A stretch of DNA of 64,000 nt, taken from contig CP154954.1 in the NCBI GenBank assembly GCA_039621445.1, positions 39,517,816 through 39,581,815 on the forward strand, written 5' to 3'. Position numbers and translations under genes: made by a program. Shown piece after piece: positions 1-54,702 of the stretch (its first letter is position 1; the number at the start of each line of letters is the position of its first letter). This DNA comes from Euglena gracilis. Lineage: Eukaryota. The notes under the pieces were generated by a model that was not told where the DNA came from, did no database searches, and saw nothing but the letters and a program-made list of their open reading frames with translations.

Positions 1-903
1 GCAGGGGTGGTGTGCGGCGGGCAGGGCGGTGGGGGTCAGGCGCCCGCAGGGGTTGTCAGTGGGGCGGGGTTGCCTGGGTGTGGAGGCTTGCGTGCGTGCC
101 ACGCATTACTTTGCCCTTGCTGTTTTTTTTGAGTCACAAAACAGATAATTGATGTTGATGCGCGCAATTGCGCAAATAAAACGTACGACGGTGTGCGTGC
201 CATGGGATGAGAGGGGTGCCAATGGAAGAACCACATGATTGAAAGAGATGGGGATGAAAAGACAGGAGGGGAAAGAAAAAAGGCCGACTGGCAAACAGAC
301 CCCCGGCGGGCGGGGGTACACGCTGGCCGCCCGGGGCTGAACAGGAGGAGGGGGGCCGCCCCGCACTCCGCCGCGCGCTGGTTGTCAGTGGGGGGCGGTG
401 CTTGAGGGGAGGGGTAATTATTTTTTTTTGAACACGGGCGAGAGGGGCAGCACGACACGAGAGGGGGGCTGAAGGGTCACGAGAGGGGGTGTGTCACACC
501 AACCCAAAAAAAAAAAAAACAGAAGTCCACCTCCCTGCAGGGTAGAGGGCGTGGGGATGACGGTCAGCAGGGGGGCGGTGTACACGGACACCCATGGCGG
601 TGGGGCACTGTCTCCCAACTGGCAGGCAAATAACAAAAAAACAAACTGTGCGTTTTACTTGCGCAAGTGCGCGCATCAACACCACTGATGAATTTTTTTT
701 TCGAAATAAGAATTCTGAGAGGGGACAGACCATAGCCGAGAGGGGACTGAGAGGGGGAAACAAACTTGTAACTGTAACATTTGCGCAAATGCGCGCATCA
801 AATGTGTTTTGTTAAAAAAAAACATGAGAAGCGGTGAATGGCGTGGGGAGGAGAACTGAAGAAAAAAAAAGAAGAAGGTGCTGAGACAGGCCCACAGCCA
901 GTC

Positions 904-3900
904 TCACTTCTTGTGCTTGGTGAGCCGCTTGGCCAGGCTCTCCGAGGCGGCCGCCGGCTTGGCGCCGGGCTTGGGCAGCCCGCGGCGGACGGTGCTCCGG
1001 GGCGCCGCAGGCGGGGCGGTACGAGGCGGTGGCGGTGCCGGGGCCTCCTCCTCCTCGGACTCCTCCTCCTCGGACTCCGCCTCCTGCGTCGCCGCCGGTG
1101 CCGAGGCCGCCGCTGCCTGCGACGACGCTGCCTCCGCGGCCACCTTGGCCTTGGATGCCTCGACGATGTGCTTCATCGCCGGGTACTTCTTGGGGTCGAG
1201 GAGGTGGTACGACTTGGGGCCCTTCAGGCTTCAGGGCCTCCCCCGGGCCCGGGGGACGGATCAGTCCCGCCGCCTTCCACCGGGTGTCCTCCTTGGCTCC
1301 CTTGCCCTTGCCCTTGCCCTTGCCCTCCCCCTTCTTCTCCTCCCCCTGCTTCTCCTTCCACTTCTGGGGCACCGGCTTCCGGTACCCGGGGGTGATCTCC
1401 TCGATGGTGTCCTCCTCCTCTTCCTCTTCTCCCTGCTGCACTGGTGGGACCGCGGGAGCTTCGCTGGCGACTGCGGAGGAGGTGTCCGAGCTGTCACTGC
1501 TGCTGCTGCTGCTGCTGCTACTGTCCTCCTCCACCTCCTCCTCCTCCGGGTGGCGGCTGGGCTGGGCCACCGGCGGCGGCACGATGATGGGGCTGGCTCC
1601 GGGTTCGGGCGGGGTCAGCTCCGGGGTCTCCCGGCCGGGGGCGGTCATCTCCACGTCGCCCTCCTCCGGGCTGTCCACCGCCTCGGTCTCCTCCCGTCGG
1701 GGCTTGGGGGCTGGGGGCCTGCTGGGCCTCTTCTCCGGCTCCTTCTTCCGGCGCTTCTTCTTCCGGTCAGCCCCACCCTTCTGGCGCTCCTCCAGCTTCT
1801 GCAGGCGGCGCTGCTCCTGCCGGATCTTGGTCTGGCGGCGCCGCTCCTCGGCCTCCTTGGCCCTCGCCCCGCCTCCTCAGCGGCCAGGCGGAGCTTGTCC
1901 TGCAGGGCGGCGTTCTCCAGGGGGACCCAGAGGGCGTCCCCCCCTTCCAGGGCGGCCAGCAGGAGGGGCAGCATGGCGGAGGCGACGGGCCGGGGCAGGG
2001 TCACCGTGTTGGCCACGGTCTGGGTGACGTCCTCCAGGCTGCTGGCCGAGTCCTCCACCACCACCAGCACCTCCGGGGGCTTGGCTGCCCAGGCCGCCAC
2101 CCGGCCGGCCACCGCGGCGTCGGTGGTCTGGATCACCATGGCGTTGGCGGCCTCCATCCGCCGCGCCACCCTCCGCCACAGCCACTCCACGCACAGCCAG
2201 TGCAGCCCCTGCCCGCAGCTGGACTCCACGTCCCACTCCACCTTGGGCAGCACCTGCGAGGGCACGATGGGACCAGACAGGCATGGAAGGCTGAAAGAGT
2301 TTTCTTGTATAAGGTGCGCGCAATTGCGCGCATCAAACGATCACATTTTAAAAAAGATGCAGATGGGTGACCCTCCAGTATCCACTGTCTGAAATGCGGA
2401 ATGACAATCTGCAGAATGCGTGAGGTGGGGTGGGTACCTTGCTTCGCTCCACGTCACCCGGGCCGTACACGACCACCAGGGCCCGCTTCTCGAACTTGCG
2501 GGCCACCCCCTGGCCCCCCTGCCGCAGCCAGACGTCCACCGTCACCGACTCCCGCCCCGGCGCCAGCCGCCGCACCGCCGCCTCCACCGCAGCCACCGCC
2601 CCGGCACCGCCGTAGATGGCAACCGGCACGACGCCGGCCAGGCGCTTGACCTGCTCGGACAGGAGGGGGCAGGATTCTGTGGAGAGTGTGTTGGCGCATT
2701 GACAGACACCTTGAGTCATTGGATTTGCGCAAGTGCGTGCAACAAAACATTTGCGCAAGTGCGCGCATCAAATTTAAAAAAAAATTGCATACACAACTGG
2801 GGAGCTGTTTCTGTTGAGAGTGGGAGTATGAATTTCTTTTTTTTGTGCGCGCAATTGCGCAAGTGAAACAGAAACTACTAAAATTGAAAAGACTCACGTT
2901 TAAACAGAACCCTGAGCCCGTGTTGTGGGTGACCTCGATGGCGACGAGGCCACTGCGGCCCCCAGCGCCTCCGCCGGGACCGCTCCGCCGCTGGCCTGGT
3001 ACACCAGGCAGCGCACCCCCTTCTCCTCCCCGGCCGGCCGGGCCACCCCCACCTCCTGGAGGGCCCCGCCCTCCTTGGCCACCACCTCGGTCTCCACCGT
3101 CGGGAAGGCGAAGGAGGCCCGCAGCTCCTCGTACTGCGCCTCCACCCAGAAGGGGGCCGTCAGCACCGCCGCCAGGGGGGGCTTCGGCTCCGCCGGGCTC
3201 CAGGTCCACGACCCCAGCCTCGCCACCTGCAGCGCCGCCACCGGGACGGTCCGCTTGAAGCGGCTGCGCTCCGCCCCGTTGTGCACTGCGAGACAACGGT
3301 GAAGGGGGGGGGGAGAAGCACGTGACCACACTTGCAATGCACCCAGTGACCATCACCACCAACCGCCGTCCAATGCTATGGGCACCCTTCATATGCAACC
3401 CCGACCCACGCAGACCCCAGTGGCACACCCATCCGCGCGTGGATGTTGGGGTTGTCGACCCGCCACGCGAAGGCCACCCACATCTCGTGGGTGGCCTCGG
3501 TCACCGCCTGCTCCAGCTGGGCCAGGCCGATCCCCGGGCTCTGCAGCGCCGCCGCCACCTGCGCCCGCGCCTCGGGGGTCAGCAGCCGCCGGAGGGACCG
3601 CACGTGGGAGGACAGCAGCGTGCGGCCCCTCGCCGCCAGCGCCGACTCGACGCTCAGCAGCCCCGCCACCGCCTCCGGGTTCTCCTCCACCAGCCGCTGC
3701 AGCGGCCCCCACATCTGGATGACCTGCCCCTGAGGCAATGACACAGAGACTGGAACCCTACGCCAGTACATCATGACAATGCACTACGTCTTTGTGAGAC
3801 ATTTTTTATGCGCGCAATTGCGCAAATAAAATGGGAACCACGTCATCTGGGGGACCGACCGGTCCCAGCCGGCCTGCCGGTAGGCCGCAGCCAGCCGCAC

Positions 3901-5033
3901 CGCCGGCACCGTGCTGATGTCCTTCCCCTTCACCAGGAGGTTGGCGAACTGGGGGATGGACAGCTCCTTCACCGACGACTGGATGGCCTGCGCATCCCCG
4001 CCGGCCGCCCGCCGCAGGTGCACCGGGGTCAAGGGGTGGAGGATGGTGGCGAGGACGTATTTCGCCTGGCCACAGCCCTGCATTTGCACCACTATCTGTG
4101 AGACCTGGGAGGGGCTGCACAGGAGGGGCGACACGAGAGGGGTGGCATGAGAGGGGCGGCACGAGAGGGGCTGCACGAGAGGGGCTGCACGAGAGGGGTG
4201 ACATGGGAGGGGCAAAACAAAAAACACACAAAGAAATACAGAGCTGAATCCTTCGGGGGGTTCAACTTCTGGGACCTGAAGCCCTCCGCCCAGCGCTTCA
4301 GCGCCGAGGTGATGTGCTGCCCCGACATCAGCACGTAGTGGTTCTCTGTGAAAACAGTGGCAGGATGTGCGCGCAATTGCGCAAATCAAATGACATTGTG
4401 TGCTTGTGCGCGCAATTGCGCAAATCAAATGACATTGTGTGCTTGTGCGCGCAATTGCGCAAATCAAATGCATTGTGTGCTTGTGCGCGCAATTGCGCAA
4501 ATCAAATAGTACCAACCATGCAAAGCACAGTGGCCAAAGCAGAGCCCCACATACCAACAGAGACTCCACAGGCTAACTGATGTCAGAGAGACCGTCACAC
4601 CTCACACAGTCATATAACACACAATCACACTGAGAGACACACCGGCCTTCTTCCAGACCGTCACCCTCACCGGCTCCAGCGGGGGGTTGAGCTGCAGCTG
4701 CCGGAGCTTGCGCTCCACTTCGTTGTTGTCGAGGGGGCGGGTCTGGCCCTCCGTCATCCCGTAGTCGACGTGGAGGGTGTCGAGGGGGAGTTTGGTGCTG
4801 GTCGCCAGCACCCACTGCTCCACCTTTTCTTTGTACACCTCCGCGATGGGGAGCTTCCGGGCGGTGTTGCGGGGGCGTACCCGCCCCGGCTTGGCGGCGG
4901 GCTTGGGCTCCTGCACTGCAGCGGCCTCGGCCGGGGCGGGCTCCGCTCCGGACTCCGCCACCTCGGTCCCGGGCTCCGCCTGTCCGGGGACGGCGGGCTC
5001 CCCCTCCGGGGGGACAGCCACAGGGTCGGCCAT
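904..5033 (-). CDS. Left-arm copy of the multi-exon ParB/Srx-like + degenerate DNA-methyltransferase-like gene (frameshifted; intron-3 donor deleted; possible pseudogene)
   Basis: Mirror of the right-arm gene, ATG at 5033 and stop at 904. GC3-rich exons. Single-base indels near ~2950 and ~1865, a 7-nt duplication near ~1225, and a ~50-bp deletion near 3848. Confidence 0.7.
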
Positions 5034-5572
5034 GGTGTGCGACCTGAGGCAATTTTCAAAAAGGGGGGGTTTCTAACCAGTGACTGAACTACACATTCAA
5101 CAGCTGAATGAAGCGCATTTTAAACGCCTTCCACCCCACGGGAGGCAACCCGCCCCAAATGTGGCAAAAATTCATCCGACTTAGGCATTTTCAGGCAAAA
5201 AATAGAAAAACTGTGAAACAGTACAACGGAGCGCACAACATGCATTATTCTGGTCCGTAGCAAGGGGGGGTATGGATATGCTACGTTTTTGTAATCTTTC
5301 ACGGCCTGTCTGTGTCACAAAATGCCCAACACAAACCGGGGGTGACACGTCACGCATTCAGGTCGCGTAACTGCTAACGCACGGGCGGTTTGCCGTTGGA
5401 CGTCCGTAGGCCTGCTTTTTTGGAAATGTAGAAGGCGTACGGAGAGGAGTTTTCAATTTTTTTATTTTGGCGCACGTGCACCTCGTCACGGCGCATCGAT
5501 TGATCCGTGAAATAAAGCGTGGCGTCACTTGTATCAAAAGTTACTGAATCCTCGCCTCATCAGAAAATCCGC

Positions 5573-7983
5573 TCAGTCAGACCCCTCGAAGGGGTCCGCC
5601 GGGACGTACGCGTGGGACGCCCTCAGCTCCACAGTGTCCCGACTGCTGGTGGCCGCCCCGCGCTCCGCCTGCACTCGCCCGCCCGGCCGCTGAGGTGACG
5701 TGTCAGGGCCTGGTGATTCGAATCGCGACCGTCGAGTCGGTCGCTCACGCAGGGACCCCTCCGACGACGAGTCAGCAGCCACGGGCAACGGCAGACTCGC
5801 AGTGCCCCACTGCATTGATATTTTAAAATACACTTTTGATGCGCGCAATTGCGCAAATGTAACACAATGTATGGCTTCTGGGAGGGGGGTTTGACAGCCT
5901 ATTCTCAAAAACGGTCACACTCTGAAAACTACACAGCTACAAACGTTCAGTACCTTTCCCCCTGCTTTCAGAACACGGAGAATTACCCAAACAAACACGG
6001 AGCATGTAACACGCATGCGCACGCTGTGACTGATGGGTCATTACTTTCAAGGGGGTGTGAAGGAACTCTGTGCCAGACACAATACACAGAATGGGCCTAC
6101 CACACTTGTCTATTGGGATCAATGTGAAACAGTTCACACTTTTGATGCGCGCAATTGCGCAAATAAAAAGTGTAATCATCATTACAAGGTACATCACTAC
6201 TGACAGCATCACCACCCACTTGCAATTTTTTCTTAACGTTTGATGCGCGCAAATGCGCAAATGCTACATTACACTTTGGTATTCCTCCGGTGAATCATGT
6301 CAGCAGAACAACGGTGGCAGTAATTACAGCCCTCCCCCAGAAAGTAAATGACCAACCGCGAGTCTGGCTGCTGCCTCCCCAGCAGCCCTCTGCTGACGTG
6401 GACGGCGGCGACCCAGCACGCTGTCCCAGTGGACCTGGCACAGGTCCACCTCCGCCTGCGACCGCCGGCTGCTGCCAGCCTGCGCGTCGTAGCACAGCTG
6501 GTCCAGCTCCGCCGCCGCGTCGGCGGAGGGCACCTGGTCCTTCAGGAGCGTCCGCAGCGCGTACTGCAGCACGTCCTTCAGGGCCGTCTCGCCCTTCGGC
6601 CCCGCGTCGGGCGCCAGCAGGGACGGCGGACCGACCCAGCCGTCCGGCCACCGCGGGACCACGGACTGGTCCTCGGACTCCTCCCCCTCGTCCGCGTCCA
6701 GCTCCTCCGGCTGCCGCCGTCGCTCCGGGCGCAGCCCCCTCACCGAGGCGTACGTCACCATCTGGTGGACCAGCCGGTCGGGGGCGTCCACCGGCGGCCG
6801 CAGCTCACTGCCGTCCAGCAGGTGGTCCAGGTTGCGCAGGCAGTCCGCCAGCCACCGCCGGTCCACCCCGCCCGCTCGCAGCTCCCGGGCGCCGTGATGC
6901 CCCTGCCTCACCAGGAGGTACAGGTCCATCACGTCCTCCACCTCCACCGCCTCCGGGTGCTGCTGCATGGACCCGCCCAGCCTGCTGAGGGTGCCTCGTT
7001 CACCTCCTCCGAGAAGCAGCAGGCGGGCAGCTGCTCGTGCCACCCGTCCCACATCAGCAGCGCGCACGCCAGCGTCCGCACGTAGTCGGAGTGGCCGCGC
7101 GGCCGGTGTCCGGGTGTCGGCGCCTCCAGGTGCAGCAGCATCGTCAGGGCGTTGCACAGCACCTTCCGCGCCTGCCCGCCGGTCTGCGGCCGCCGCTCCT
7201 CCCAGTGGCACTCCCGCACCTGCCACCCCAGCGCGAAGCACGCCGGCGCCCACACCACCAGCAGGTCCTCCAGCGCCTGCGCCACCGCCAGGTCCCGCTC
7301 CAGATGCTCCAGGGCCTCCACCGCCTGGGCCTCCTTCCGGCGGCAGTGCTCCAGCGCCCGGATGCACTCCATCTCCCGGCTCCCCGACTGCCACGCCCGC
7401 TCCATCTTGGCGCTGGCCGTCGCGTGCCGCACCTGCCGGGCGGTCTGCCGCTCCGCCTCCTCCTGCCTGCGCCGGGCCTGCTGCGTCTGCTGCCGTCGCC
7501 GCTCCACCTCCGGCGCCACGGTGTCCCGCCGCCGCCGCAGGGTCCGGATCAGCCGTCGGAGGCGGGCGCGGCGGTCCGCCGGCACCAGCAGCATGGCGCC
7601 GACCCACATCTCCAGCGCCCGCACCTTCGGCTTGGTCGACCACTGCTCCCACGGCGCCATGGTGCCCCGCTGCAGGAAGAGGAACAGCGGCAGCAGGCGG
7701 CGGTACAGCACGTACAGCACCTGCTTGTACGCGTGCCACACGCCGTACAGCGGGGGCAGCTGCCGCAGCGCCTCGCCCGCGTCCCACCGCTGGCACTCCC
7801 GCCCGTACACCACCTTCAGCTGGCGGTACCAGAGGTTGATGTCCACCAGCAGAGGCAGCGGCGCCTTCACGCGGCCCAGGACGTCGCCCTTCAGGAACCG
7901 CAGGACCTTCAGCATCCCCACCTGCGAGGAGATCCGGTCGTCCGTCAGCATGAAGGGGCGCCACACCGGGACGCGGGCGTTCT
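5573..7983 (-). CDS. Left-arm copy of the 5'-truncated DDE-like transposase (Academ/DUF6589- or KDZ-like); exons ~7983-6357 and 5809-5573
   Basis: ORF 6929..7966 reads PLLVDINLWYR...LPPLYGVWHAYKQ with an intact GxWH motif, then FSEEVNE with a 1-nt frameshift at ~6993. The reading continues in the 6324..8087 frame. Confidence 0.6.
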
Positions 7984-8183
7984 CTCAGCCGCATCAGAGT
8001 CACCGCCTTTTGCGTGACACCAACTGCACAGTCACACCTCTGATACAAAACGGACCCTGAAATGTTTTGATGCGCGCATTTGCGCAAATGCGCGCATCAA
8101 AACATTTTAGGGTCTGTTTTGTATCAGAGGTGTGACTGTGCAGTTGGTGTCACGCAGAAGGCGGTGACTCTGATGCGGCTGAG

Positions 8184-10593
8184 AGAACGCCCGCGTCCCG
8201 GTGTGGCGCCCCTTCATGCTGACGGACGACCGGATCTCCTCGCAGGTGGGGATGCTGAAGGTCCTGCGGTTCCTGAAGGGCGACGTGCTGGGCCGTGTGA
8301 AGGCGCCGCTGACGCTGCTGGTGGACATCAACCTCTGGTACCGCCAGCTGAAGGTGGTGTACGGGCGGGAGTGCCAGCGGTGGGACGCGGGCGAGGCGCT
8401 GCGGCAGCTGCCCCCGCTGTACGTGTGTGGACGCGTACAAGCAGGTGCTGTACGTGCTGTACCGCCGCCTGCTGCCGCTGTTCCTCTTCCTGCAGCGGGG
8501 CACCATGGCGCCGGGGGAGCAGTGGTCGACCAAGCCGAAGGTGCGGGCGCTGGAGATGTGGGTCGGCGCCATGCTGCTGGTGCCGGCGGACCGCCGCGCC
8601 CGCCTCCGACGGCTGATCCGGACCCTGCGGCGGCGGGACACCGTGGTGCCGGAGGTGGAGCGGCGACGGCAGCAGACGCAGCAGGCCCGGCGCAGGCAGG
8701 AGGAGGCGGAGCGGCAGACCGCCCGGCAGGTGCGGCACGCGACGGCCAGCGCCAAGATGGAGCGGGCGTGGCAGTCGGGGAGCCGGGAGATGGAGTGCAT
8801 CCGGGCGCTGGAGCACTGCCGCCGGATGGAGGCCCAGGCGGTGGAGGCCCTGGAGCATCTGGAGCGGGACCTGGCGGTGGCGCAGGCGTTGGAGGACCTG
8901 CTGGTGGTGTGGGCGCCGGCGTGCTTCGCGCTGGGGTGGCAGGTGCGGGAGTGCCACTGGGAGGAGCGGCGGCCGCAGACCGGCGGGCAGGCGCGGAAGG
9001 TGCTGTGCAACGCCCTGACGATGCTGCTGCACCTGGAGGCGCCGACACCCGGACACCGGCCGCGCGGCCACTCCGACTACGTGCGGACGCTGGCGTGCGC
9101 GCTGCTGATGTGGGACCGGTGGCACGAGCAGCTGCCCGCCTGCTGCTTCTCGGAGGAGGTCAACGAGGCGACCCTCAGCCGGCTGGGTGGCTCGATGCAG
9201 CAGCACCCGGAGGCGGTGGAGGTGGAGGACGTGATGGACCTCTACCTGCTGGTGAGGCAGGGGCACCACGCCGCCCGGGAGCTGCGGGCGGGCGGGGTGG
9301 ACCGGCGGTGGCTGGCGGACTGCCTGCGCAACCTGGACCACCTGCTGGACGGCAGTGAGCTGCGGCCGCCGGTGGACGCCCCCGACCGGCTGGTCCACCA
9401 GATGGTGACGTACGCCTCGGTGAGGGGGCTGCGCCCGGAGCGACGGCGGCAGCCGGAGGAGCTGGACGCGGACGAGGGGGAGGAGTCCGAGGACCAGTCC
9501 GTGGTCCCGCGGTGGCCGGACGGCTGGGTGGGTCCGCCGTCCCTGCTGGCGCCCGACGCGGGGCCGAAGGGCGAGACGGCCCTGAAGGACGTGCTGCAGT
9601 ACGCGCTGCGGACGCTCCTGAAGGACCAGGTGCCCTCAGCCGACGCGGCGGCGGAGCTGGACCAGCTGTGCTACGACGCGCAGGCTGGCAGCAGCCGGCG
9701 GTTGCAGGCGGAGGTGGACCTGTGCCAGGTCCACTGGGACAGCGTGCTGGGTCGCCGCCGTCCACGTCAGCAGAGGGCTGCTGGGGAGGCAGCAGCCAGA
9801 CTCGCGGTTGGTCATTTACTTTCTGGGGGGAGGGCTGTAATTACTGCCACCGTTGTTCCGCTGATATGATTCACCGAGGAATACCAAAGTGTAATGTAGC
9901 ATTTGCGCATTTGCGCGCATCAAACGTTAGGAAAAAAATATGCAAGTGGGTGGTAATGCTGTCAGTAGTGATGTACCTTGTAATGATGATTACACTTTTT
10001 TATTTGCGCAATTGCGCGCATCAAAAACGTGAACTGTTTCACATTGATCCCAATAGACAGGTGTGGTTGGCCCCTTCTGTGTATTGTGTCTGGCACAGAG
10101 TTCCTTCACACCCCCTTGAAAGTAATGACCCATCAGTCACAGCGTTTGCATACCTGTTACGTGCTCCGTGTTTGTTTAGGTAATTCTCTGTGTTCCGAAA
10201 GCCGGGGGAAAGGTACTGAACGTTTGTAGCTGTGTAGTTTTCAGAGTGTGACCGTTTTTGAGAATAGGCTGTCAAACCCCCCTCCCAGAAGCCATACATT
10301 GTGTTACATTTGCGCAATTGCGCGCATCAAAAGTGTACTTTAAAATATCACTGCAGTGGGGCACTGCGAGTCTGCCGTTGCCCGTGGCTGCTGACTCGTC
10401 GTCGGAGGGGTCCCTGCGTGAGCGACCGACTCGACGGTCGCGATTCGAATCACCAGGCCCTGACACGTCACCTCAGCGGCCGGGCGGGCGAGTGCAGGCG
10501 GAGTGCGGGGCGGCCACCAGCAGTCGGGACACTGTGGAGCCGAGGGCGTCCCACGCGTACGTCCCGGCGGACCCCTTCGAGGGGTCTGACTGA
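8184..10593 (+). CDS. Right-arm copy of the 5'-truncated DDE-like transposase; exons ~8184-9806 and 10357-10593
   Basis: ORFs 8201.. and 8427..9869 are joined by a frameshift at ~8424 that corrupts GVWH. FSEEVNEATLSRL is intact. A phase-0 GT at 9807 and AG at 10355-10356 give an in-frame terminal exon ending in TGA at 10593. The exact 5' acceptor (~8184) is uncertain. Confidence 0.6.
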
Positions 10594-11137
10594 GCGATTT
10601 TCTGATGAGGCGAGGATTCAGTAACTTTTGATACAAGTGACGCCACGCTTTATTTTACGGATCAATCGATGCGCCGTGACGAGGTGCATGTGCGCCAAAA
10701 GAAAAAAATTGAAAACTCCCCACCGTACGCTTTCTACATTTCCAAAAAAGCAGGCCTACGCACGTCCAACGGCAAACCGCCCGTGCGTTAGCAGTTTCGC
10801 GACCTGAATGCGTGACGTGTCACCCCCGGTTTGTGTTGGCCATTTTGTGACACAGACAGGCCGTGAAAGATTACAAAACCGTAGCATATCCATACCCCCC
10901 CTTGCTACGGACCAGAATAATGCATGTTGTGTGTTCCGTTGTACTGTTTCACAATTTTTCCATTTTTTGCCTGAAAATGCCTAAGTCGGATGAATTTTTG
11001 TCACATTTGGGGCGGGTTGCCTGCCGTAGGGTGGAAGGCGTTTAAAATGCGCTTCATTCAGCTGTTGAATGTGTAGTTCAGTCACTGGTTAGAAACCCCC
11101 CCTTTTTGAAACTGCGCCTTGCCTCAGGTCGCACACC

Positions 11138-14100
11138 ATGGCCGACCCTGTGGCTGTCCCCCCGGAGGGGGAGCCCGCCGTCCCCGGGCAGGCGGAGCCC
11201 GGGACCGAGGTGGCGGAGTCCGGAGCGGAGCCCGCCCCGGCCGAGGCCGCTGCAGCGCAGGAGCCCAAGCCCGCCGCCAAGCCGGGGCGGGTACGCCCCC
11301 GCAACACCGCCCGGAAGCTCCCCATCGCGGAGGTGTACAAAGAAAAGGTGGAGCAGTGGGTGCTGGCGACCAGCACCAAACTCCCCCTCGACACCCTCCA
11401 CGTCGACTACGGGATGACGGAGGGCCAGACCCGCCCCCTCGACAACAACGAAGTGGAGCGCAAGCTCCGGCAGCTGCAGCTCAACCCCCCGCTGGAGCCG
11501 GTGAGGGTGACGGTCTGGAAGAAGGCCGGTGTGTCTCTCAGTGTGATTGTGTGTTATATGACTGTGTGATGTATGACGGTCTCTCTGACATCAGTTAGTC
11601 TGTGGAGTCTCTGTTGGTATGTGGGGCTCTGCATTGGCTACAGTACTTTGCATTGTTGGTACTATTTGATTTGCGCAATTGCGCGCACAAGCACACAACG
11701 TCATTTGATTTGCGCAATTGCGCGCACAGGCACACAATGTTATTTGCTTTGCGCAATTGCGCGCACAAGCACACAGTGTCATTTGATTTGCGCAATTGCG
11801 CGCACATCCTGCCACTGTTTTCACAGAGAACCACTACGTGCTGATGTCGGGGCAGCACATCACCTCGGCGCTGAAGCGCTGGGCGGAGGGCTTCAGGTCC
11901 CAGAAGTTGAACCCCCCGAAGGATTCAGCTCTGTATTTCTTTGTGTGTTTTTTGTTTTGCCCCTCCCATGTCACCCCTCCCATGTAACCCCTCTCGTGCA
12001 GCCCCTCTCGTGCCGCCCCTCTCATGCCACCCCTCTCGTGTCGCCCCTCCTGTGCAGCCCCTCCCAGGTCTCCCACACAGTCGTGCAAATGCAGGGCTGT
12101 GGCCAGGCGAAGTACGTCCTCGCCACCATCCTCCACCCCTTGACCCCGGTGCACCTGCGGCGGGCGGCCGGCGGGGATGCGCAGGCCATCCAGTCGTCGG
12201 TGAAGGAGCTGTCCATCCCCCAGTTCGCCAACCTCCTGGTGAAGGGGAAGGACATCAGCACGGTGCCGGCGGTGCGGCTGGCGGCGGCCTACCGGCAGGC
12301 CGGCTGGGACCGGTCGGTCCCGCGGGTGTGAGCCCAGTGCAGTACCTCTGCCACTGCTCCCATGCATTCAGTTTGATGACGTTGTTCCCATTTTATTTGC
12401 GCAATTGCGCGCATAAAAATGTTTCACAAAGACATAGTGCATTGTCATGATATACTTCTGTGTGTCATTGCCTCAGGGGCAGGTCATCCAGATGTGGGGG
12501 CCGCTGCAGCGGCTGGTGGAGGAGAACCCGGAGGCGGTGGCGGGGCTGCTGAGCGTCGAGTCGGCGCTGGCGGCGAGGGGCCGCACGCTGCTGTCCTCCC
12601 ACGTGCGGTCCCTCCGGCGGCTGCTGACCCCCGAGGCGCGGGCGCAGGTGGCGGCGGCGCTGCAGAGCCCGGGGATCGGCCTGGCCCAGCTGGAGCAGGC
12701 GGTGACCGAGGCCACCCACGAGATGTGGGTGGCCTTCGCGTGGCGGGGCGACAACCCCAACATCCACGCGCGGATGGGTGTGCCACTGGGGTCTGCGTGG
12801 GTCGGGGTTGCATATAAAGGGTGCTTACAGCAATGAATGGCGATTGGTGGTGATGGTCACTGGGTGCATTGCAAGTGTGATCACGTGCTTCCCCCCCCCC
12901 TTCACTGTTGTCTCGCAGTGCACAACGGGGCGGAGCGCAGCCGCTTCAAGCGGACCGTCCCGGTGGCGGCGCTGCAGGTGGCGAGGCTGGGGTCGTGGAC
13001 CTGGAGCCCGGCGGAGCCGAAGCCCCCCCTGGCGGCGGTGCTGACGGCCCCCTTCTGGGTGGAGGCGCGGCACGAGGGGCTGCGGGGCTCGGTCGCCTGC
13101 CCCCCGGCGGAGGCCGACGTGGTGGCCAAGGAGGGCGGGGCCCTCCAGGAGGTGGGGGTGGCCCGGCCGGCCGGGGAGGAGAAGGGGGTGCGCTGCCTGG
13201 TGTACCAGGCCAGCGGCGGCGCGGTGCCGGCGGAGGCGCTGGGGGCCGCAGTCAGGCTTCTTTTTAAGACCCCCGGGGGGGGGAGGGGGGGGGTCCCCCC
13301 CCACCCACCCAGGGTGGTGCGGGGCCCCCCCACCGGGGGGGGGGGGGGGGGGTCCGGGGACCCCCCCAAAATCGGGCCCGTTAAAGGCAATTTTCAAAAA
13401 TTTTCGGCGCTTCGCGCCGAAAAGGTATACCCAGCGCCTCCGGCGCGGGACCCCCCCCCTGGGGGGGAGGGTCCGGCCCGGACCCACCCACCCACCCCCC
13501 CTCCCCCCAGGGGGGGGGGGTCAGGGGAATTAAAAAGAAGCCTGGCCGCAGTGGGCCTCGTCGTCATCGAGGTCACCCACAACACGGGCTCAGGGTTCTG
13601 TTTAAACGTGAGCCTTTTTTTCAGTTTTAGCAGTTTCTGTTTTACTTGCGCAATTGCGCGCACAAAAAAAATTCATACTCCCACTCTCAACAGAAACAGC
13701 TCCCCAGTAGTGTATGCAATTTTTTTTAAATGTGATGCGCGCACTTGCGCAAATGTTTTGTTGCACGCACTTGCGCAAATCCAATGGTGTCTGTCAGTGC
13801 GCCAACACACTCTCAAACAGAATCCTGCCCCCTCCTGTCTGAGCAGGTCAAGCACCTGGCCGGTGTCGTGCCGGTCGCCATCTACGGCGGTGCCGGGGCG
13901 GTGGCCGCGGTGGAGGCGGCTGTGCAGCGGCTGGCGCCGGGGCGGGAGTCGGTGACGGTGGACGTCTGGCTGCGGCAGGGGGGCCAGGGGGTGGCCCGCA
14001 AGTTCGAGAAGCGGGCCCTGGTGGTCGTGTACGGCCCCGGTGACGTGGAGCGAAGCAAGGTACCCCACCCCACCTCACGCATTCTGCAGATTGCCATTCC

Positions 14101-15588
14101 GCATTTTAGACAGTGGATACTGGAGGGTCACCCATCCTCTGCGTCTTTTTTTAAAATGTGATCGTTTGATGCGCGCAATTGCGCGCACCTAATACACGAA
14201 AACTCTTTCAGCCTTCCATGCCTGTCTGGTCCCATCGTCCCCTCGCAGGTGCTGCCCAAGGTGGAGTGGGACGTGGAGTCCAGCTGCGGGCAGGGGCTGC
14301 ACTGGCTGTGCGTGGAGTGGCTGTGGTGGCGGGTGGTACGGCGGATGGAGGCGGCCAACGCCATGGTGATCCAGACCGCCGACGCCGCGGTGGCCGGCCG
14401 GGTGGCAGCCTGGGCAGCCAAGCCCCCTGAGGTCCTGGTGGTGGTGGAGGACTCGGCCAGCAGCCTGGAGGACGTCACCCAGACCGTGGCCAACACGGTG
14501 ACCCTGCACCGGCCCGTCGCCTCCGCCATGCTGCCCCTCCTGCTGGCCGCCCTGGAAGGGGGGGACGCCCTCTGGGTCCCCCTGGAGAACGCCGCCCTGC
14601 AGGACAAGCTCCGCCTGGCCGCCGAGGAGGCGGGGCGACGGGCCAAGGAGGCCGAGGAGCGGCGCCGCCAGACCAAGATCCGGCAGGAGCAGCGCCGCCT
14701 GCAGAAGCTGGAGGAGAGCCAGAAGGGTGGGGCTGACAGGAGGAAGAAGCGCCGGAAGAAGGAGCCTGAGAAGAGGCCCAGCAGGCCCCCAGCCCCCAAG
14801 GCCAGACGGGAGGAGACCGAGGCGGTGGACAGCCCGGAGGAGGGCGACGTGGAGATGACCGCCCCCGGCCGGGAGACCCCGGAGCTGACCCCGCCTGAAC
14901 CCGGAGCCAGCCCCATCATCGTGCCGCCGCCGGTGGCCCAGCCCAGCCGCCACCCGGAGGAGGAGGAGGTGGAGGAGGACAGCAGCAGCAGCAGCAGCAG
15001 CAGTGACAGCTCGGACACCTCCTCCGCAGTCGCCAGCGAAGCTCCCGCAGCCCCACCAGTGCAGCAGGGAGAAGAGGAAGAGGAGGAGGACACCATCGAG
15101 GAGATCACCCCCGGGTACCGGAAGCCAGAGCCCCAGAAGGGGAAGGAGAGACAGGGGGAGGAGAAGGGGGAGGGCAAGGGCAAGGCAGCAAGGGAAGGGA
15201 GCCAAGGAGGACACCCGGTGGAAGGCGGCGGGGCTGATCCGTCCCCCGGGACCGGGGGAGGCCCTGAAGGGCCCCAAGTCGTACCACCTCCTCGATCCCA
15301 AGAAGTACCCGGCGATGAAGCACATCATCGAGGCGTCCAAGGCCAAGGTGGCCGCGGAGGCAGCGTCGTCGCAGGCAGCGGCGGCCTCGGCACCGGCGGC
15401 GCCACAGGAGGCGGAGTCCGAAGAGGAGGAGTCCGAGGAGGAGGAGGCCCCGGCACCGCCACCACCTCATACCGCCCCGCCTGCGGCGCCCCGGAGCACC
15501 GTCCGCCGCGGGCTGCCCAAGCCCGGCACCAAGCCGGCGGCCGCCTCGGAGAGCCTGGCCAAGCGGGCTCACCAAGCACAAGAAGTGA
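11138..15588 (+). CDS. 7-exon gene: N-terminal ParB/Sulfiredoxin-like domain, degenerate beta-class N6/N4 DNA-methyltransferase-like region, and a charged low-complexity tail
   Basis: Phase-compatible exons 11138-11528, 11827-11922, 12105-12325, 12477-12777, 12919-13571 (MITE inside), 13847-14059 and 14249-15588. Introns are GT-AG except intron 2. Spliced N-terminus: GQTRPLDNNEVERKLRQLQLNPPLEPVRVTVWKKAENHYVLMSGQHITSALKRW. Two apparent 1-nt frameshifts in the last exon (~15187, ~15566). Confidence 0.75.
11668..11808. repeat. Four tandem ~40-bp units, each carrying the TTGCGCAATTGCGCGCAC motif, in intron 1 (mirror at ~4365-4505)
   Basis: ATTTGATTTGCGCAATTGCGCGCACAAGCACACA is repeated four times. 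Confidence 0.9.
11923..12104 (+). other. Euglenid-type non-conventional intron (mirror copy at 4068-4249, minus strand)
   Basis: Begins ATT-CAG (CAG at +4..+6) and ends CTG-TGGCC (CTG at -8..-6). The ends pair: CAGCTCTGTATTT with AAATGCAGGGCTG. Removal gives in-frame NPPK-E-AKYVLATILH. Confidence 0.75.
13253..13544. mobile_element. hAT-type MITE inserted in exon 5 of the right-arm gene only
   Basis: Perfect 15-bp TIR CAGGCTTCTTTTTAA / TTAAAAAGAAGCCTG. 8-bp TSD GCCGCAGT at 13245-13252 and 13545-13552. Empty site in the left arm at ~2952-2959. Confidence 0.93.
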
Positions 15589-17375
15589 GACTGGCTGTGG
15601 GCCTGTCTCAGCACCTTCTTTTTTTTTCTTCAGTTCTACTCCGCACTCCATTCTCTGCTTCTCATGTTTTTTTTACAAAACACTTTTGATGCGCGCATTT
15701 GCGCAAATGTTCCTGTTACAAATGTTTCCCCCTCTCAGTCCCCTCTCAGCTATGGTCTGTCCCCTCTCGGAATTCTTGTTCCAAATAAAAAAAATCATCA
15801 GTAGTGTTGATGCGCGCAATTGCGCAAATAAAACGCACACTTTTTTTTGTTTTGTTATTTGCCTGCCAGCTAGGAGACAGTGCCCCACCGCCGTGGTGTC
15901 CGTGTACACCGCCCGCTGCTGACCGTCATCCCCACGCCCTCTACCCTGCAGGGAGGTGGACTTGTTTTTTTTTGGGGGGTTGGTGTGACACACCCCCTCT
16001 CGTGACCCTGCAGCCCCCCTCTCGTGTCGTGCTGCCCCTCTCACCCGTGTTCAAAAAAAAAATTACCTCTCCCCCCAAACACCGCCCCCCACTGACAACC
16101 AGCGCGCGGCGGAGTGCGGGACGGCCCCCTCTTCCTGTTCAGCCCCGGGCGGCCAGCGTGTACCCCGCCCGCCGGGGGTCTGTTTGCCAGTCTGCCTTTT
16201 CTCTTTCTTCCCTCCTCCTCCCTTCCCCCCCCCCCCTCCCCCTTTTACCTCACCTTCTGCCCCCCGCTCCCTCCCCCCCTCCCGTCCATTCCCTCCTCCT
16301 TCCCTTTCCCTCCTCCCCCCTCCCCTTTGCCCTCCCCTCCGCACCTCCAGCCCCATTCCTTCCCTCCTCCGCCCCCCCGAGGTCCCCCCCACCACCCCCC
16401 CATGCCCAGAGCCCTCCCCTGACAGGGCCACCTCCTTCCCCCCTGTACCCCCCTCGACCCCCCCTCCCCGACCGCCCCATCCCTTCCAGCCCTGCCCAAG
16501 CTCCCCTCTGCCCCAGCCCAATGGTCCCACCAGGACCGCTCCCGGGAACCCCGAGGCCACCAGCAGACAAAGCCCGAAACCCCCCCCATCCATCCCAATT
16601 CCCCCCCCCTGCCAGACACCCCGCCAGACAACCCCCCCCCACGACCCCCGGAGGGTTTTGGCCCCCCCCCAAGAACCCGACCCCCCCGCAGGAGAAGAGG
16701 CCATCCTCCCCGCCCCGGAACCCCTCACCCCTCCGGACGCGGGGAGGCCAAAGACTTCACCATCCACCACAGGGCCCTGCCCGAGCCCCAAAGCCCAAAG
16801 AAAAGGACACACAGCCAAGAACCCGCAGCCAGACCTCCCACCGGGGCCCATGAAGGCCCCAATCCGCCCCCCGAGGCCCCAAAGCTTTTCCCCAGCTCCT
16901 CCCCTCGACGTCCCGCATATCCATGGTGCCACCCCCTCCGAAGAGGAGGGTGCCATAGCGCACCCCCCACCCGCCGCGCCGCGACTCAGCTTTCCCTCCC
17001 CCGGCGCAGCTCCAAGGAGCCGCCTCTTCCCGCCCCCTCCTCCAACCCCGGACGTGCAACAAGCCCGACGCCAAGCGGGGAAGGTAGGGGAAGCGGCAAG
17101 AAAAGTAAGAGAGCGGTGGGCCTGTCTCAGCCCCCCTTTGTTTTCCGCTCTAGTCTGCCACCCATTTTGAACACTTTTCCGCGCATTGCGCGTTTTCAGT
17201 TTTTCCCCTCAGTCCCCTGTGGCCTTCAGATTCCAAATTAAATTACATCGGGTGGATGCGGCCGCCACACCGTTTTTTTTCAGTGCTGTCAGAAATATCA
17301 CTGTCCGCTGCCCGGTGTCCCCCCGGCCCCACCGCCTGGAGGGTACTGGACCCCCCCCCCCGAACACCCTTTTTG

Positions 17376-53272: not shown

Positions 53273-54571
53273 ATCGTGGACTAAGAGGCCCGACGCCTGC
53301 CCTGTATATCGTTGATTGGCTTCACGCTTCAAATTAGCAGCATTTTTTTTAACAAAAAAATCAAAATTTTCAGTCCACGAGGCGCCTCCCTGTATTTCGT
53401 GGACTCAGTCCACGAAATACAGGGCAGGCGCCGGGGGGGGGGGTGGGCAATGCCTGCCCTGTATTTCGTGGACTGAAACAATGTTCTTTTTCCAGTTGCT
53501 TTTCTGCACCAATGGCGAAACGCGCGGCTATCATCATACTCCCTCGTCCCCCGAAAACATCTGAATTTTTGGCCATGTTGGAGAAAATCATCGACAACAA
53601 AAAAAACACCAGTCGTCGATCCAGTTCACGGGACTTTGCTCCAACAAGCAACAGCAAATAAGCCAGCTGCATTTGTGCCTTGGCACATCTGATGGATTTC
53701 CATCAACTGTGTCAGGACCTATAGGCAGTGTATGATGATCTGGATGACTTTTTTGTTGCCAGTGCCGGCTGGATGATTGATCCCAGTTTGTTGGTTGACG
53801 GCACAGCCCAAATCAGGCAACTGTGGGATCAACGGTGTGCACAGGCCGGTCAAAGATGCAGCGCCATCGCAGTGAAAGCATCCTCCTTCCGCGGCTACCT
53901 GACTGCCGTGGGACGAGCATACTCCTCAATCAAGCCAGAAACCCAAGCGGTGCCTTCCTCCAACTCCCAGTTTTCAAAGTTCCCGCGGTTCTTTCCGTCT
54001 GCTTACACCCGTGAACTCACCAAAAAAGCGGCAAACCAGGCTGTGCACCCCCCCATGAAATTTTACAGGACGACGAGTTGCCACGGGTGTTGTGAGAAGT
54101 GGATTGGACAAAGCCCTTTGAGGCCCAGCGGGCCAATATTTTTATTCTGGGTTTCTGCACAGGCTACCGCCCAGAGGTTCTGCGGAGACTGGAGGTTGAT
54201 TCCTTTGTGGAATCTGGAAACAGCACAAGCAGTTTCACTAGCCACTTCGTTGGGTCCCCTTTTCAGTGGCTAAAGCATTCTTTTTGCGTTCTGCTCATTG
54301 TGAAGTACAAAGGCAAGGATTTGCATTGAGTATCTCTTTGACAGTAGTAATATGTCAAAAAATCCAGTCCACAAAAACCATGCACTGATATTCGTGGACT
54401 CAGTCCACGAAATACAGTGCAGGCGTTGACCCCCCCCCCCCCGGCACCTGCCCTGTATTTCGTCAGTCCACGAAATATAGGGCAGGCGCCAGGGGGGGGG
54501 TCAACGCCTGCACTGTATTTCGTGTTCCAATCCACGATATACAGGGCAGGCGTCGGGCCTCAGTCCACGAT
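53273..54571. mobile_element. TIR element flanked by TATA, carrying a tyrosine-recombinase remnant (Crypton-like)
   Basis: TIR ATCGTGGACT..GAGGCCCGACGCCTGCCCTGTATATCG. TATA at 53269-53272 and 54572-54575. Internal repeats of CCTGTATTTCGTGGACTCAGTCCACGAAATACAG. Confidence 0.75.
53728..54260 (+). pseudogene. Decayed Crypton/DUF3504-like tyrosine recombinase fragment
   Basis: KASSFRGYLTAVGRAY...FSKF...RELTKK, then a frameshift in the C-run at ~54050, then EILQDDELPRVL*EVDWTKPFEAQRANIFILGFCTGYRPEVLRRLEVDSF (box-I-like TGYR at 54159-54170; stop at 54093). Confidence 0.55.
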
Positions 54572-54702
54572 TATAACACAAAAAATTTTTAGAGGGGTAT
54601 TCCTCCCGTGACCCCCCCCCAACCCGACTTAAGACCCATTTCGGCCAATTTTTTTCTGAAAAAATTTGCCGGTGATGCCTAATTTGACAAAATATTCAGG
54701 TA

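Follow-up and report, generated by a model that had tools for sequence, protein, structure and literature searches.

A near-palindromic motif in the non-coding DNA and terminal repeats of a Euglena gracilis repeat family as a predicted docking site for an element-encoded protein

Organization of the locus

The window analysed here is a stretch of 64,000 bp of the Euglena gracilis contig CP154954.1, in which no host genes were found. Its first part, from position 1 to ~16180, is a diverged inverted duplication of a 5′-truncated, intron-bearing coding copy, and not a single two-arm element of 16 kb as the first-pass annotation had proposed. The large palindrome formed by this duplication spans 290..16180 in the arm-to-arm alignment, with 7,585 matches, 237 substitutions (3%) and 57 indels between the arms.

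Two genes are carried by each arm. Gene 1 lies at 6324..7984 on the minus strand of the left arm and at 8183..9830 on the plus strand of the right arm. Both copies lack the first ~255 codons; the left one retains the C-terminal two thirds or so, from residue ~256 of ~800, with one frameshift near 6992, and the right one has two 1-bp deletions near 8423-8431. Among 357 relatives of gene 1, the family conserves D..D..WH..E residues, and the alignment contains invariant D165 (WxDNF), RxPLDxxR, D303 (PLLVDxN) and W338-H339, together with a conserved EExxEAxLSRL block. The spacing of these residues presumably resembles that of DDE transposases with a C/DxxH motif. The family is dark to Pfam (0 of 150 relatives matched), and a profile search found no relative in the PDB. 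We infer that gene 1 encodes the transposase; it may instead be an accessory gene.

Gene 2 occupies 904..5033 on the minus strand of the left arm, with its ATG at 5031-5033, its stop codon at 904-906, and seven exons separated by six GT-AG introns. This copy is a pseudogene with frameshifts, in which the donor of intron 3 has been removed by a 50-bp deletion. The right-arm copy (11138..15588, plus strand) keeps the intron-3 donor GTGTGAG and has a 301-bp exon insertion and frameshifts. Introns were inferred from GT-AG boundaries, continuity of the reading frame and composition; no spliced RNA supporting them was seen, and the sequencing runs presumed to be RNA, which may in fact be DNA, cover introns as well as exons. 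Searches of gene-2 exons against Pfam, NCBIfam, PADLOC and PDB sequences, and against phages by tblastn, gave nothing, and homologue searches with single-exon queries returned no relatives. Exon 3 gave a sub-threshold MarR-type match, with E = 0.058 and a score of 13 bits where the cut-off is 230. The tests for a ParB domain in gene 2 are weak, because intron 1 splits the candidate domain and single exons only were submitted. A recognised DNA-binding domain was found in neither protein, gene 2 being examined as single exons, and the frames listed for the window include no ParA-like partner.

The motif and its distribution

A search of the window with GATGCGCGCANTTGCGCAAAT that allowed up to 3 mismatches gave 52 matches. 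Of these, 19 are exact, and 100 dinucleotide-preserving shuffles give an expectation of 0.00; each match lies within 157-15829 or 54741-57650. Merging hits that overlap on palindromic variants leaves 49 loci: the left arm has 16, the right arm 15 and the segment 54741-57650 the other 18. Allowing 4 mismatches adds 4 matches, each within 54703-57689, and at neither threshold was a copy found in 16-54.7 kb or 57.7-64 kb. Between the two motif-bearing regions, blastn returned only matches of 35-75 bp, around motifs. Across the window, the motif is confined to a single repeat family, which is highly abundant in the DNA contigs of one organism, where 59,188 pieces of contigs from one run matched at ≥90%. 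The first-pass annotation had described about 15 copies per arm in both orientations, and otherwise only copies in 54703-57689 and a degraded trace near 17180. The scan bears this out, and every coordinate named there was recovered, from 157 to 8069 and among the mirrors in 8078-15829.

The 21-bp word is indeed near-palindromic and conserved, but the conserved unit is longer, ~29 bp from position −4 to +24. Conservation is sharp inside these limits and information beyond them is ~0, so the sites form islands amid unrelated sequence. The unit is an imperfect palindrome, T(T/G)TT-(G/T)(A/G)TGCGCGCA-(A/T/C)-TTGCGCAAAT-NAA, in which two GCGC-centred 8-bp palindromes, TTGCGCAA and TGCGCGCA, are present in every copy and spaced one helical turn apart. 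In the window, 47 of the 52 occurrences of GCGCGCA and all those of TTGCGCAAAT fall inside motifs. Most loci are single, non-palindromic copies, intact amid unrelated flanks.

In the left arm, the 3′ non-coding DNA holds an exact copy at 157..177 (plus; far 3′, without a counterpart in the right arm), one with 1 mismatch at 657..677 (minus) and an exact one at 779..799 (minus). Within gene 2, a 22-bp head-to-head palindromic variant, (G/A)TGCGCGCAATTGCGCGCA(T/C)C, lies in intron 6 (2313..2334). Intron 5 contains a minus-strand pair 26 bp apart at 2723..2769 (2723 with 2 mismatches, 2749 exact) and a copy of opposite polarity with 3 mismatches at 2844..2864 (plus). Intron 3 has a plus-strand copy with 1 mismatch at 3807..3827, and intron 1 a plus-strand tandem array of four copies with a 39-bp repeat at 4366..4502. 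Exact plus-strand copies at 5838..5858 and 6144..6164 lie in the spacer between the genes, and a plus-strand copy with 1 mismatch lies at 6242..6262, immediately 3′ of gene 1. Within the gene-1 intron, a perfect 30-bp double motif (8069..8098) of two overlapping copies, heads outward, with its centre TTGC|GCAA at 8083/8084, forms the centre of the 16-kb palindrome. The right arm mirrors this arrangement: three minus-strand spacer copies (9901, 10002 and 10308; 9901..10328), the 39-bp array of four copies in intron 1 (11669..11806, minus), a copy in intron 3 (12395..12415, minus), three in intron 5 (13644 minus, 13734 plus and 13760 plus; 13644..13780), the head-to-head variant in intron 6 (14168..14189), and exact 3′ non-coding copies at 15688 and 15809 (15688..15829, plus).

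All 16 left-arm loci are non-coding, where non-coding DNA makes up 3,357 of 8,083 bases; the probability of this by chance is 0.415^16 = 8e-7, or 1e-5 with the four-copy array counted once. The sites occupy four of the six gene-2 introns, the gene-1 intron, the intergenic spacer and the 3′ flank. The earlier view of the motif as one of introns and flanks, never of exons, holds in its exclusion from exons, but introns I2 and I4 of gene 2 contain no copy. Its surroundings are unrelated, as had been said, but AT-rich only in a relative sense, with 51% G+C in motif-free non-coding DNA against 72% in exons. The sites extend throughout the non-coding DNA of the coding copy, in agreement with the claim that they are spread along the element and are not only subterminal. 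Between the arms, motif positions differ at 3 of 308 and other non-coding positions at 119 of 2,700 (Fisher p = 0.002); this contrast is weakened by ascertainment, since the sites were picked as intact in one arm and the expectation is about halved.

A gene-less element and a decayed relative

The element in the second region, 54703-57689, is gene-less: nothing related to gene 1 lies in it, and terminal inverted repeats of 73 bp bound it on either side. In an alignment of 73 columns, the left repeat (54703..54774, plus) matches the right repeat (57617..57689, minus) at 66, with 6 mismatches and a single gap, and identity drops to 4/13 just outside them. AGGTA flanks both sides, at 54698..54702 (plus) and 57690-57694, and is a candidate 5-bp target-site duplication. 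A single inward-pointing copy of the motif lies within each terminal repeat, at a distance of 38-39 bp from its tip (54741-54761 and 57630-57650). The motif is tied to the cis-acting ends of the element, because it is part of these repeats. Their motif copies had been missed by the first-pass annotation.

Altogether, 18-22 motif copies are packed into the 3 kb of this element, which has two internal clusters 400-1,200 bp from its ends. The left cluster (55387..55895), with nested palindromes of 70-146 nt, comprises a head-to-head variant at 55387, copies at 55423 (plus), 55592 (minus), 55675 (plus), 55759 (minus) and 55875 (plus), and a double motif at 55629-55658. The right cluster (56857..57285) comprises copies at 56857 (plus), 56993 (minus), 57097 (minus, 4 mismatches), 57173 (plus, 4 mismatches), 57229 (minus) and 57265 (minus), a double motif at 56948-56977 and a decayed one at 57131-57160. 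The four double motifs (8069, 55629, 56948 and 57131) are all of one geometry, and three of them centre longer palindromes, namely the 16-kb palindrome, the one at 55596-55691 and, only weakly, that at 57098-57192. Single-strand DNA folds of these palindromes reach z = −3.8 to −16. The link of the genes to the element at 54.7 kb is by the shared motif alone, since the coding copies are truncated pseudogenes whose own termini lie outside the window.

The degraded trace is real as well. The segment 17095..17300 (plus) matches the arms at their 3′ non-coding end, is far more diverged, and is a fragment of a dead relative with two decayed motif remnants at homologous positions. Since these two 3′ sites keep their position, the motif sites are old features rather than recent chance insertions.

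What the motif is likely to do

Judging from the sequence, the motif is most economically read as a protein-binding site. With modest confidence, we regard the motif as a family-specific, multi-copy recognition site of one eukaryotic DNA-transposon family, a predicted docking site for an element-encoded protein. A dimeric DNA-binding protein would be expected, because the unit is built of two GCGC-centred palindromes one helical turn apart. The favoured binder would be the orphan gene-2 accessory protein, with the DDE-like gene-1 protein as the alternative candidate. Binding would mark the DNA of the family in cis and could thereby serve end recognition or synapsis in transposition.

An explanation that dispenses with a dedicated binder is that the motif is a selfish or recombinogenic palindrome, multiplied by fold-back, primed inverted duplication or gene conversion like the REP-like units of bacteria. 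A unit of 21-29 bp cannot be produced repeatedly by point mutation, so the copies must have been made by copying; the common geometry of the double motifs, the place of three of them at palindrome centres and their fold scores fit such a process. We nevertheless consider it unlikely, as it leaves unexplained why the motif stands at a set place and points inward in both terminal repeats, why sites keep their positions in the diverged relative at 17.1 kb, and why single copies stay intact amid unrelated flanks.

The element might also gather sites for a host factor of the bZIP type, which would serve its own expression as enhancers or promoters. The TTGCGCAA core is what we take to be a perfect bZIP (C/EBP-type) palindrome, each unit offers it together with TGCGCGCA, and both genes contain sites and have others upstream and downstream. 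That conservation over ~29 bp takes in the GATGCGCGCA head and the T/A-rich edges and so goes far beyond the need of a bZIP protein, that half-sites do not stand on their own (counts above), and that each terminal repeat includes one copy make this quite improbable.

About as doubtful is the strict parS/ParB model, in which gene 2 would be a CTP-dependent clamp of the ParB/Srx fold that loads at the motif and spreads, for partition, condensation or control of silencing. Read by eye, with no tool support, exons 1-2 resemble a ParB N-terminus (LPLDTL..Q.RPLD..ERKLRQL...PLEPVRVTVW....HYVLMSGQH); exon 3 has a helix-turn-helix-like stretch, the site of the sub-threshold MarR match, and the motif is near-palindromic like parS, with four tandem copies inside the gene. 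However, the gene-2 box reads SGQHI and lacks the arginine of GxxR, the CTP-binding motif of ParB. No exon, tested singly, matched a ParB family, structure or homologue, a ParA-like partner is missing from the listed frames, and the need of a chromosomal transposon for partition is not evident. Printed precedents are found in reports on Plavaka PAG3 (10.1101/2025.02.11.637652) and on Sola1 of Ectocarpus (PMC12477816), but the ParB link of PAG3 is itself weak, with an HHpred E of 0.29 (10.1101/2025.02.11.637652).

That hairpins of inverted motif pairs in gene-less transcripts yield small RNAs against the intronic copies of coding elements is very improbable, for all the 21-nt unit length and the near-perfect inverted pairs of the gene-less element, given the lack of transcript signal (the runs guessed to be RNA may be DNA, as noted), the lack of Rfam matches, and the place of the motif in terminal repeats, which indicates a role at the DNA level.

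Comparison with known systems

Foldback-type transposons have long terminal arrays of one repeat. The present family is like them in DNA layout, with many short repeats at its ends and inside it that form long inverted repeats able to fold back, and differs in its discrete 73-bp terminal repeats and internal nested palindromes. As in bacterial ParB-parS, including the annotated parS of P1, palindromic sites are clustered at or in the gene of the presumed binder; unlike there, no ParB domain (single exons) or ParA was found, and the sites extend over at least 8 kb of intron-bearing, chromosomal eukaryotic DNA.

Subterminal repeats are known from the 12-bp TnpA motifs of En/Spm and from Ac/Ds. 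Such repeats of cut-and-paste transposons are treated in parts of PMC3260210 and PMC1636448. Here too, the copies are short, occur in both orientations near the ends, are kept by gene-less derivatives and are presumably bound by an element protein, and one motif stands at a set distance within each terminal repeat. Whereas known subterminal repeats keep within a few hundred bp of the ends, the present motif runs throughout the coding copy and forms internal clusters 400-1,200 bp in.

Among algal giant transposons, the relevant sections of two reports describe PAG3 of a Plavaka element in the red alga Bostrychia, which has a ParB-like N-terminus and adjoins inverted repeats arrayed in tandem (10.1101/2025.02.11.637652), and Sola1-1_Ec32 of Ectocarpus, with a ParB-methyltransferase accessory gene inside a Sola1 element (PMC12477816); both proteins are proposed there to bind the repeat arrays of their own element. 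Gene 2 likewise has no Pfam domain, inverted-repeat arrays at the gene and a ParB-like N-terminus proposed, here by eye. As far as those sections go, it differs from the 2OG-oxygenase PAG3 and the methyltransferase of Ectocarpus, since its single exons show neither domain nor a ParB signal. Those elements belong to EnSpm/Plavaka or Sola1, whereas the putative transposase here matches no Pfam family, those of EnSpm/Plavaka and Sola1 included, and the target-site duplication looks to be 5 bp.

Another parallel is offered by the VANC anti-silencing proteins of the Arabidopsis VANDAL (Mutator-like) transposons, whose binding was determined by ChIP-seq and EMSA. In the portions of that work bearing on the motif, the word bound by VANC21 is YAGTATTAY, which occurs for the most part within introns and in the intergenic and terminal non-coding stretches of VANDAL21 (Hosaka et al. 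2017, PMC5735166). The VANC motif, as described there, is 9 bp long, in one orientation and in dense arrays; the present one measures 21-29 bp, is near-palindromic, varies in orientation, has one tandem array only, and also lies in terminal inverted repeats. Gene 2, for its part, has no detected similarity to anything in single-exon searches. Both systems share a short, family-specific motif that lies mainly in non-coding parts of the element, is absent from coding regions and is partly tandem. The VANDAL motif is recognised by an accessory protein that the transposon itself encodes (PMC5735166), and such a binder is putative here. The spread of sites over the whole element suggests that it could control the chromatin or transcription of the element, as VANC does for VANDAL.

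Distribution and shape of the motif

A pattern scan of the window with GATGCGCGCANTTGCGCAAAT gave 52 matches at ≤3 mismatches, 19 of them exact, where 0 are expected from 100 dinucleotide-preserving shuffles. After overlapping matches on palindromic variants were merged, 49 motif loci were obtained. These comprise 16 in the left arm (157–8069) and 15 mirrors in the right arm (8078–15809) of a large inverted duplication, and 18 (54741–57650) in a gene-less element of 2,987 bp at 54703–57689, hereafter the 54.7-kb element. Allowing ≤4 mismatches adds four loci, every one within 54703–57689, so that the total there becomes 22; the 78-bp satellite (17.3–48 kb) and the remainder of the window have zero matches at this threshold. 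The first-pass annotation had noticed the 21-bp near-palindromic word from sequence alone. All the coordinates it gave for the motif are correct, and its restriction to the arms and to 54703–57689 holds throughout the window at ≤4 mismatches.

The information profile of the 34 non-mirror loci shows a conserved span of ~29 bp, from −4 to +24, reading T(T/G)TT-(G/T)(A/G)TGCGCGCA-(A/T/C)-TTGCGCAAAT-NAA(A/C). The 21 core columns of this profile are inflated by the site-selection procedure, the flank columns being free of that, and information is about zero on either side of the span. By blastn, the arm region and the 54.7-kb element share only matches of 35–75 bp, each around motifs. Within the unit, TGCGCGCA and TTGCGCAA are each an 8-bp palindrome, and TGCGC recurs at a distance of 10 bp. 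Two compound forms are fully palindromic: a 22-bp head-to-head form at 2313, 14168 and 55387, and a 30-bp double motif of two overlapping copies with heads outward at 8069, 55629 and 56948, the latter also found decayed at 57131.

The exact motif has zero matches in the viral contig collection and two among 241 million metagenome records (L001 576–596, L002 9222–9242). Both of these sit in a bacterial membrane-protein frame encoding ..GAMRAIAQM.., which we take to be nuoH-like. They were rejected as relatives of the element, being chance matches in a bacterial coding frame and uninformative on the element. The motif strings have no match in the searchable literature. An open-frame survey of the window found no host genes, and it contains no Rfam families or tRNAs.

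The coding copy is an inverted duplication

The window from 1 to ~16180 is a single large palindrome centred at 8083/8084. Its arms differ by 237 substitutions (133 transitions) in 7,822 aligned bases and by 57 indels, one of them a 301-bp insertion found only in the right arm, and are therefore diverged sequence and not a read artefact; possibly, two paralogues were joined in assembly at the double motif, itself a palindrome. Two co-oriented genes lie in each arm, gene 1 (a DDE-like candidate; 6324–7984 on the minus strand, 8183–9830 on the plus strand) and gene 2 (earlier called ParB-like; 904–5033 minus, 11138–15588 plus), with a G+C content of 72% in exons versus 51% in non-coding DNA. The palindrome axis is a perfect 30-bp double motif within the gene-1 intron. 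The gene-1 exon follows an AG and begins at 7984 with residue ~256 (relatives have ~800 residues), and the DNA upstream of it is intron reaching the palindrome centre. Since this intron lies at the axis, both arms lack gene 1's initial ~255 codons; the N-terminal part is absent from the whole window. Gene 2 of the left arm runs on the minus strand from an ATG at 5031–5033 to a stop at 904–906, in seven exons separated by six GT-AG introns that were placed by their ends and their consistent phases. Its intron-3 donor is lost from the left arm by a 50-bp deletion and retained as GTGTGAG in the right arm, and frameshifts are present in both copies. The 16-kb element with arms described at first reading is thus an inverted duplication of a 5′-truncated dead copy.

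The exons are less diverged between the arms (2.0%) than the non-coding DNA (4.4%), though both copies are pseudogenes; possible causes of this gap are a mutation bias, the quality of the alignment and gene conversion by other copies. The codon differences number 27 synonymous versus 37 non-synonymous, with one segment partly out of frame, and exon divergence between the arms looks close to neutral.

The 301-bp insertion (13253–13553) lies in a gene-2 exon and has inverted ends CAGGCTTCTTTTTAA.., an 8-bp duplication GCCGCAGT and many G- and C-runs. Summed contig depth across it is ~10x that of its surroundings, and family copies without it (joint 13243>13544) are present in 4/4 runs. It resembles a miniature transposon that is very abundant and has an 8-bp duplication. 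The duplicated part spans 290–16180, arm homology stopping near the latter position. A C-rich low-complexity stretch at 16200–17100 (62% G+C, GC skew −0.36) stands in the right arm where the left arm (1–290) continues as element DNA. Adjoining the palindrome, 17300–48500 holds ~30 kb of the 78-bp satellite, whose GC skew is strongly negative and which also occurs as 112-, 156- and 190-bp variants; other repeats break it at ~34–35, 40–42 and 44–45 kb.

Placement and polarity of the motif

All 16 motif loci of the left arm are non-coding, while non-coding DNA makes up 41.5% of the arm (p = 8e-7, or p = 1e-5 when the four-copy 39-bp array is counted once). They are located in introns 1, 3, 5 and 6 of gene 2, in the gene-1 intron, in the spacer (n=3) and in the 3′ flank (n=3). 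The proposed confinement to introns and flanks is borne out in this sense, but introns 2 and 4 of gene 2 are empty. Through spacer, introns and 3′ flank the copies spread over at least 8 kb and are not subterminal only. The sole tandem array is that of gene-2 intron 1, where four copies are repeated at 39 bp. In gene-sense orientation the upstream sites are uniform, the direction switches within intron 5, and the outermost 3′ site is turned inward.

Between the arms, motif positions differ at 3/308, other non-coding positions at 119/2,700 and exons at 92/4,707. The contrast between the motif and other non-coding DNA (Fisher p = 0.002) is weak evidence, because only sites intact in the left arm were chosen, which discards roughly half of the changes to be expected.

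Gene-2 intron 2 (4105–4232) is filled with short GAGAGGGG(C/T)-type repeats (..cacgagaggggctgcacgagagggg..), and the same type occurs at 380–480 in the 3′ flank. Within the element's non-coding DNA it forms a further repeat, looser than the motif.

A gene-less relative

The terminal inverted repeats of the 54.7-kb element, 54703–54774 versus 57689–57617, align over 73 columns, of which 66 match, 6 mismatch and 1 is a gap; immediately outside them 4/13 positions are identical. AGGTA flanks the element on both sides, a candidate 5-bp duplication known from this single copy, and the joined flanks, representing an empty site, match nothing else in the window. Each terminal repeat contains one motif copy, at 54741 (+) and 57630 (−), pointing inward at 38–39 bp from the tip. 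The interior has no gene-1 similarity and no long GC3-rich frame. Its internal motif clusters (55387–55895 and 56857–57285) form nested near-perfect palindromes of 70–146 nt. By anatomy, 54703–57689 is a non-autonomous cut-and-paste transposon.

In the window, the 27-bp tip sequence has two occurrences only, 54703 and 57663. It is absent from the arms, which places the termini of the coding copy beyond the window. At 17095–17300, a decayed relative of the 3′ end retains remnants of both 3′ sites at homologous positions; within the family these sites are thus old and stable in position.

Short repeats of CCTAATTT type abound in the flanks of the 54.7-kb element (54553–54702, 57690–57840); GGTGATGCCTAATTTG stands on either side of it (54671–54686, 57722–57737), and its terminal repeat contains CCTAATT.

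The family is highly repeated. Contigs aligned on the right arm at ≥90% amount to 59,188 pieces in the DNA run X1 and to 523–919 in three smaller runs. The 54.7-kb element was detected wholly or partly in 20/24 public runs listed, and 19 of these 20 share one organism label; a leaf-litter metatranscriptome has a small share of matching words. Many motif-to-motif contig joints (for example 9922>15814, 14189>15805, 12417>9997) were considered as deletion derivatives and rejected as alignment artefacts, because their shorter side, of 21–32 letters, is the motif itself. No intron-exact joint was found among the 15 of 228 joints listed from three runs guessed to be RNA, which cover introns too and may be DNA.

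The two encoded proteins

The 466-residue open stretch of gene 1 has at least 357 representatives at E ≤1e-3 and 17 at ≤1e-30. Ten relatives examined are unnamed or annotated as 'hypothetical protein' on ENA/JGI contigs of 1–6.6 kb; uninterrupted frames of 570–840 residues on 2–4-kb contigs suggest transcript assemblies. The family proteins have ~700–840 residues. In an alignment of 28 long members, D165 (WxDNF), R248-P250-D252-R255, D303 (PLLVDxN), W338-H339 and E380 are invariant, E583, E584 and E587 (EExxEAxLSRL) are kept in at least 90%, and a variable coiled stretch separates D303 from the E block. The copies in the window are without the part bearing the first D. This residue pattern resembles that of DDE transposases with a C/DxxH motif and an insertion domain. 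Pfam matched 0/150 gene-1 relatives (P0003–P0152), the weak family matches are scattered singletons, and a profile search of PDB sequences returned coiled-coil noise only. The conserved acidic residues point to a transposase lineage not described so far; an accessory role for gene 1 is equally possible.

The gene-2 exons, searched singly with the candidate domain split by intron 1, have no match in Pfam (E up to 10), NCBIfam, PADLOC, PDB sequences or by phage tblastn; exon 3 gives a sub-threshold MarR-type match (E = 0.058). Word-index searches with two exons and with one region of P0002 found no relatives, and in the searches made gene 2 is an orphan.

Proposed recognition of the motif

What does the motif do? 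On balance we lean towards recognition by a DNA-binding protein that the element itself encodes, a reasonable but unproven reading. Such a protein would recognise the unit as a long, dimer-shaped site. Recognition by a protein explains this dimer-shaped length, the fixed copies in the terminal repeats and the many copies in a gene-less derivative, as well as the presence of copies in nearly every larger non-coding stretch and in no exon or other part of the window. The end-proximal copies would be bound by the transposase or an accessory protein for end recognition and synapsis; the subterminal repeats of En/Spm TnpA and Ac/Ds follow this end-recognition model. For the element-wide intronic copies, the VANC model may fit better. 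VANC21 is described as binding YAGTATTAY, a motif located chiefly in VANDAL21 introns and in intergenic and terminal non-coding parts of that element, and as stripping DNA methylation from the entire element (PMC5735166). A 2026 preprint includes the argument that transposases are sequence-specific regulators of their cognate copies, and gene 1 thus stays a candidate binder.

A palindrome that propagates itself independently of any protein is an unlikely alternative to recognition by an element protein. The double motifs share one geometry in 4/4 cases and are the centres of longer palindromes in 3/4, ranging from one of ~95 nt to the one with 8-kb arms. A single copy folding back at TTGCGCAA would yield exactly the 30-bp double motif, and short inverted repeats are known to seed large palindromes after hairpin-capped breaks.

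The first-pass proposal of parS-like sites, taken strictly as ParB loading and spreading along the element, is doubtful indeed. The likeness is in form only: a near-palindromic unit with four tandem copies in gene-2 intron 1 and others in introns 3, 5 and 6. By eye, the pattern of gene-2 exons 1–2 ends in ..HYVLMSGQH.., its box SGQHI lacking the GxxR arginine, and among ParB-fold domains we take the DGQHR type to be its closest likeness. Such a box would be poorly probed with a type-Ia ParB profile. Precedents exist in algae: Plavaka PAG3 of Bostrychia is reported to have a ParB-like N-terminus beside tandem inverted-repeat arrays, with binding to its own element suggested (10.1101/2025.02.11.637652), and an Ectocarpus Sola1 element is reported to carry a ParB-methyltransferase gene (PMC12477816). 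Against this stands the lack of any ParB domain match from the gene-2 exons searched singly. No ParA-type ATPase partner was found either in this 5′-truncated copy or elsewhere in the window, the open frames of the arms and the rest of the window being those of genes 1 and 2 only, neither of which has a P-loop family match.

That the motif is a host bZIP-type site is likewise improbable; in its favour, TTGCGCAA is the C/EBP palindrome.

We give little credence to a cleavage reading, in which the motif, besides being a docking site, is cut or hairpinned at TTGC|GCAA by a protein of the element (perhaps through a nuclease-fold N-terminus of the gene-2 product) and the hairpin-capped breaks replicate into inverted duplications. 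It would explain the common geometry of the double motifs, the 70–146-nt palindromes surrounding them in the gene-less element and the exact centring on one of them of the palindrome with 8 kb per arm.

Folded as single-strand DNA, the nested palindromes give −27 to −70 kcal/mol (z −3.8 to −16.5). That the motif is a source of hairpin small RNAs is scarcely credible.

Implications and comparison with known systems

If an element protein binds the unit, the pair would be a highly specific 21–29-bp protein-DNA pair, with both family proteins outside curated families. Binding would also extend transposon self-marking through intron and spacer motifs to another lineage with a different site architecture; in the sources cited here, such self-marking has so far been shown for Arabidopsis VANDAL (PMC5735166) and proposed for the ParB-like genes of algal giant transposons. 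Should host introns prove to carry the motif commonly, the finding would be an ordinary one. With double motifs at palindrome centres, the family could give rise to inverted duplications and destabilise the genome. Were cleavage to prove true, this would be a transposon-borne, sequence-specific palindrome-forming engine in a eukaryotic genome.

Marking of a transposon's non-coding DNA by motif arrays of its own has precedents in VANDAL/VANC, in subterminal repeats and in the algal ParB-like proposal. Like VANDAL/VANC, the present family has a specific motif in its own introns, intergenic and terminal non-coding DNA and, within the window, none outside family regions. In contrast, VANC targets are dense, in one orientation and tandem-evolving, whereas here there is one array, mixed orientation and a switch in intron 5. 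With TIR transposons the family shares terminal inverted repeats, a candidate flanking duplication and inverted motif copies near both ends of the gene-less copy; different from subterminal-repeat transposons, its copies are not confined to subterminal regions. Distinct here are the unit length, the near-palindromy, the occurrence in the terminal repeats as well as across introns, the position at palindrome centres and the two proteins without a curated family.
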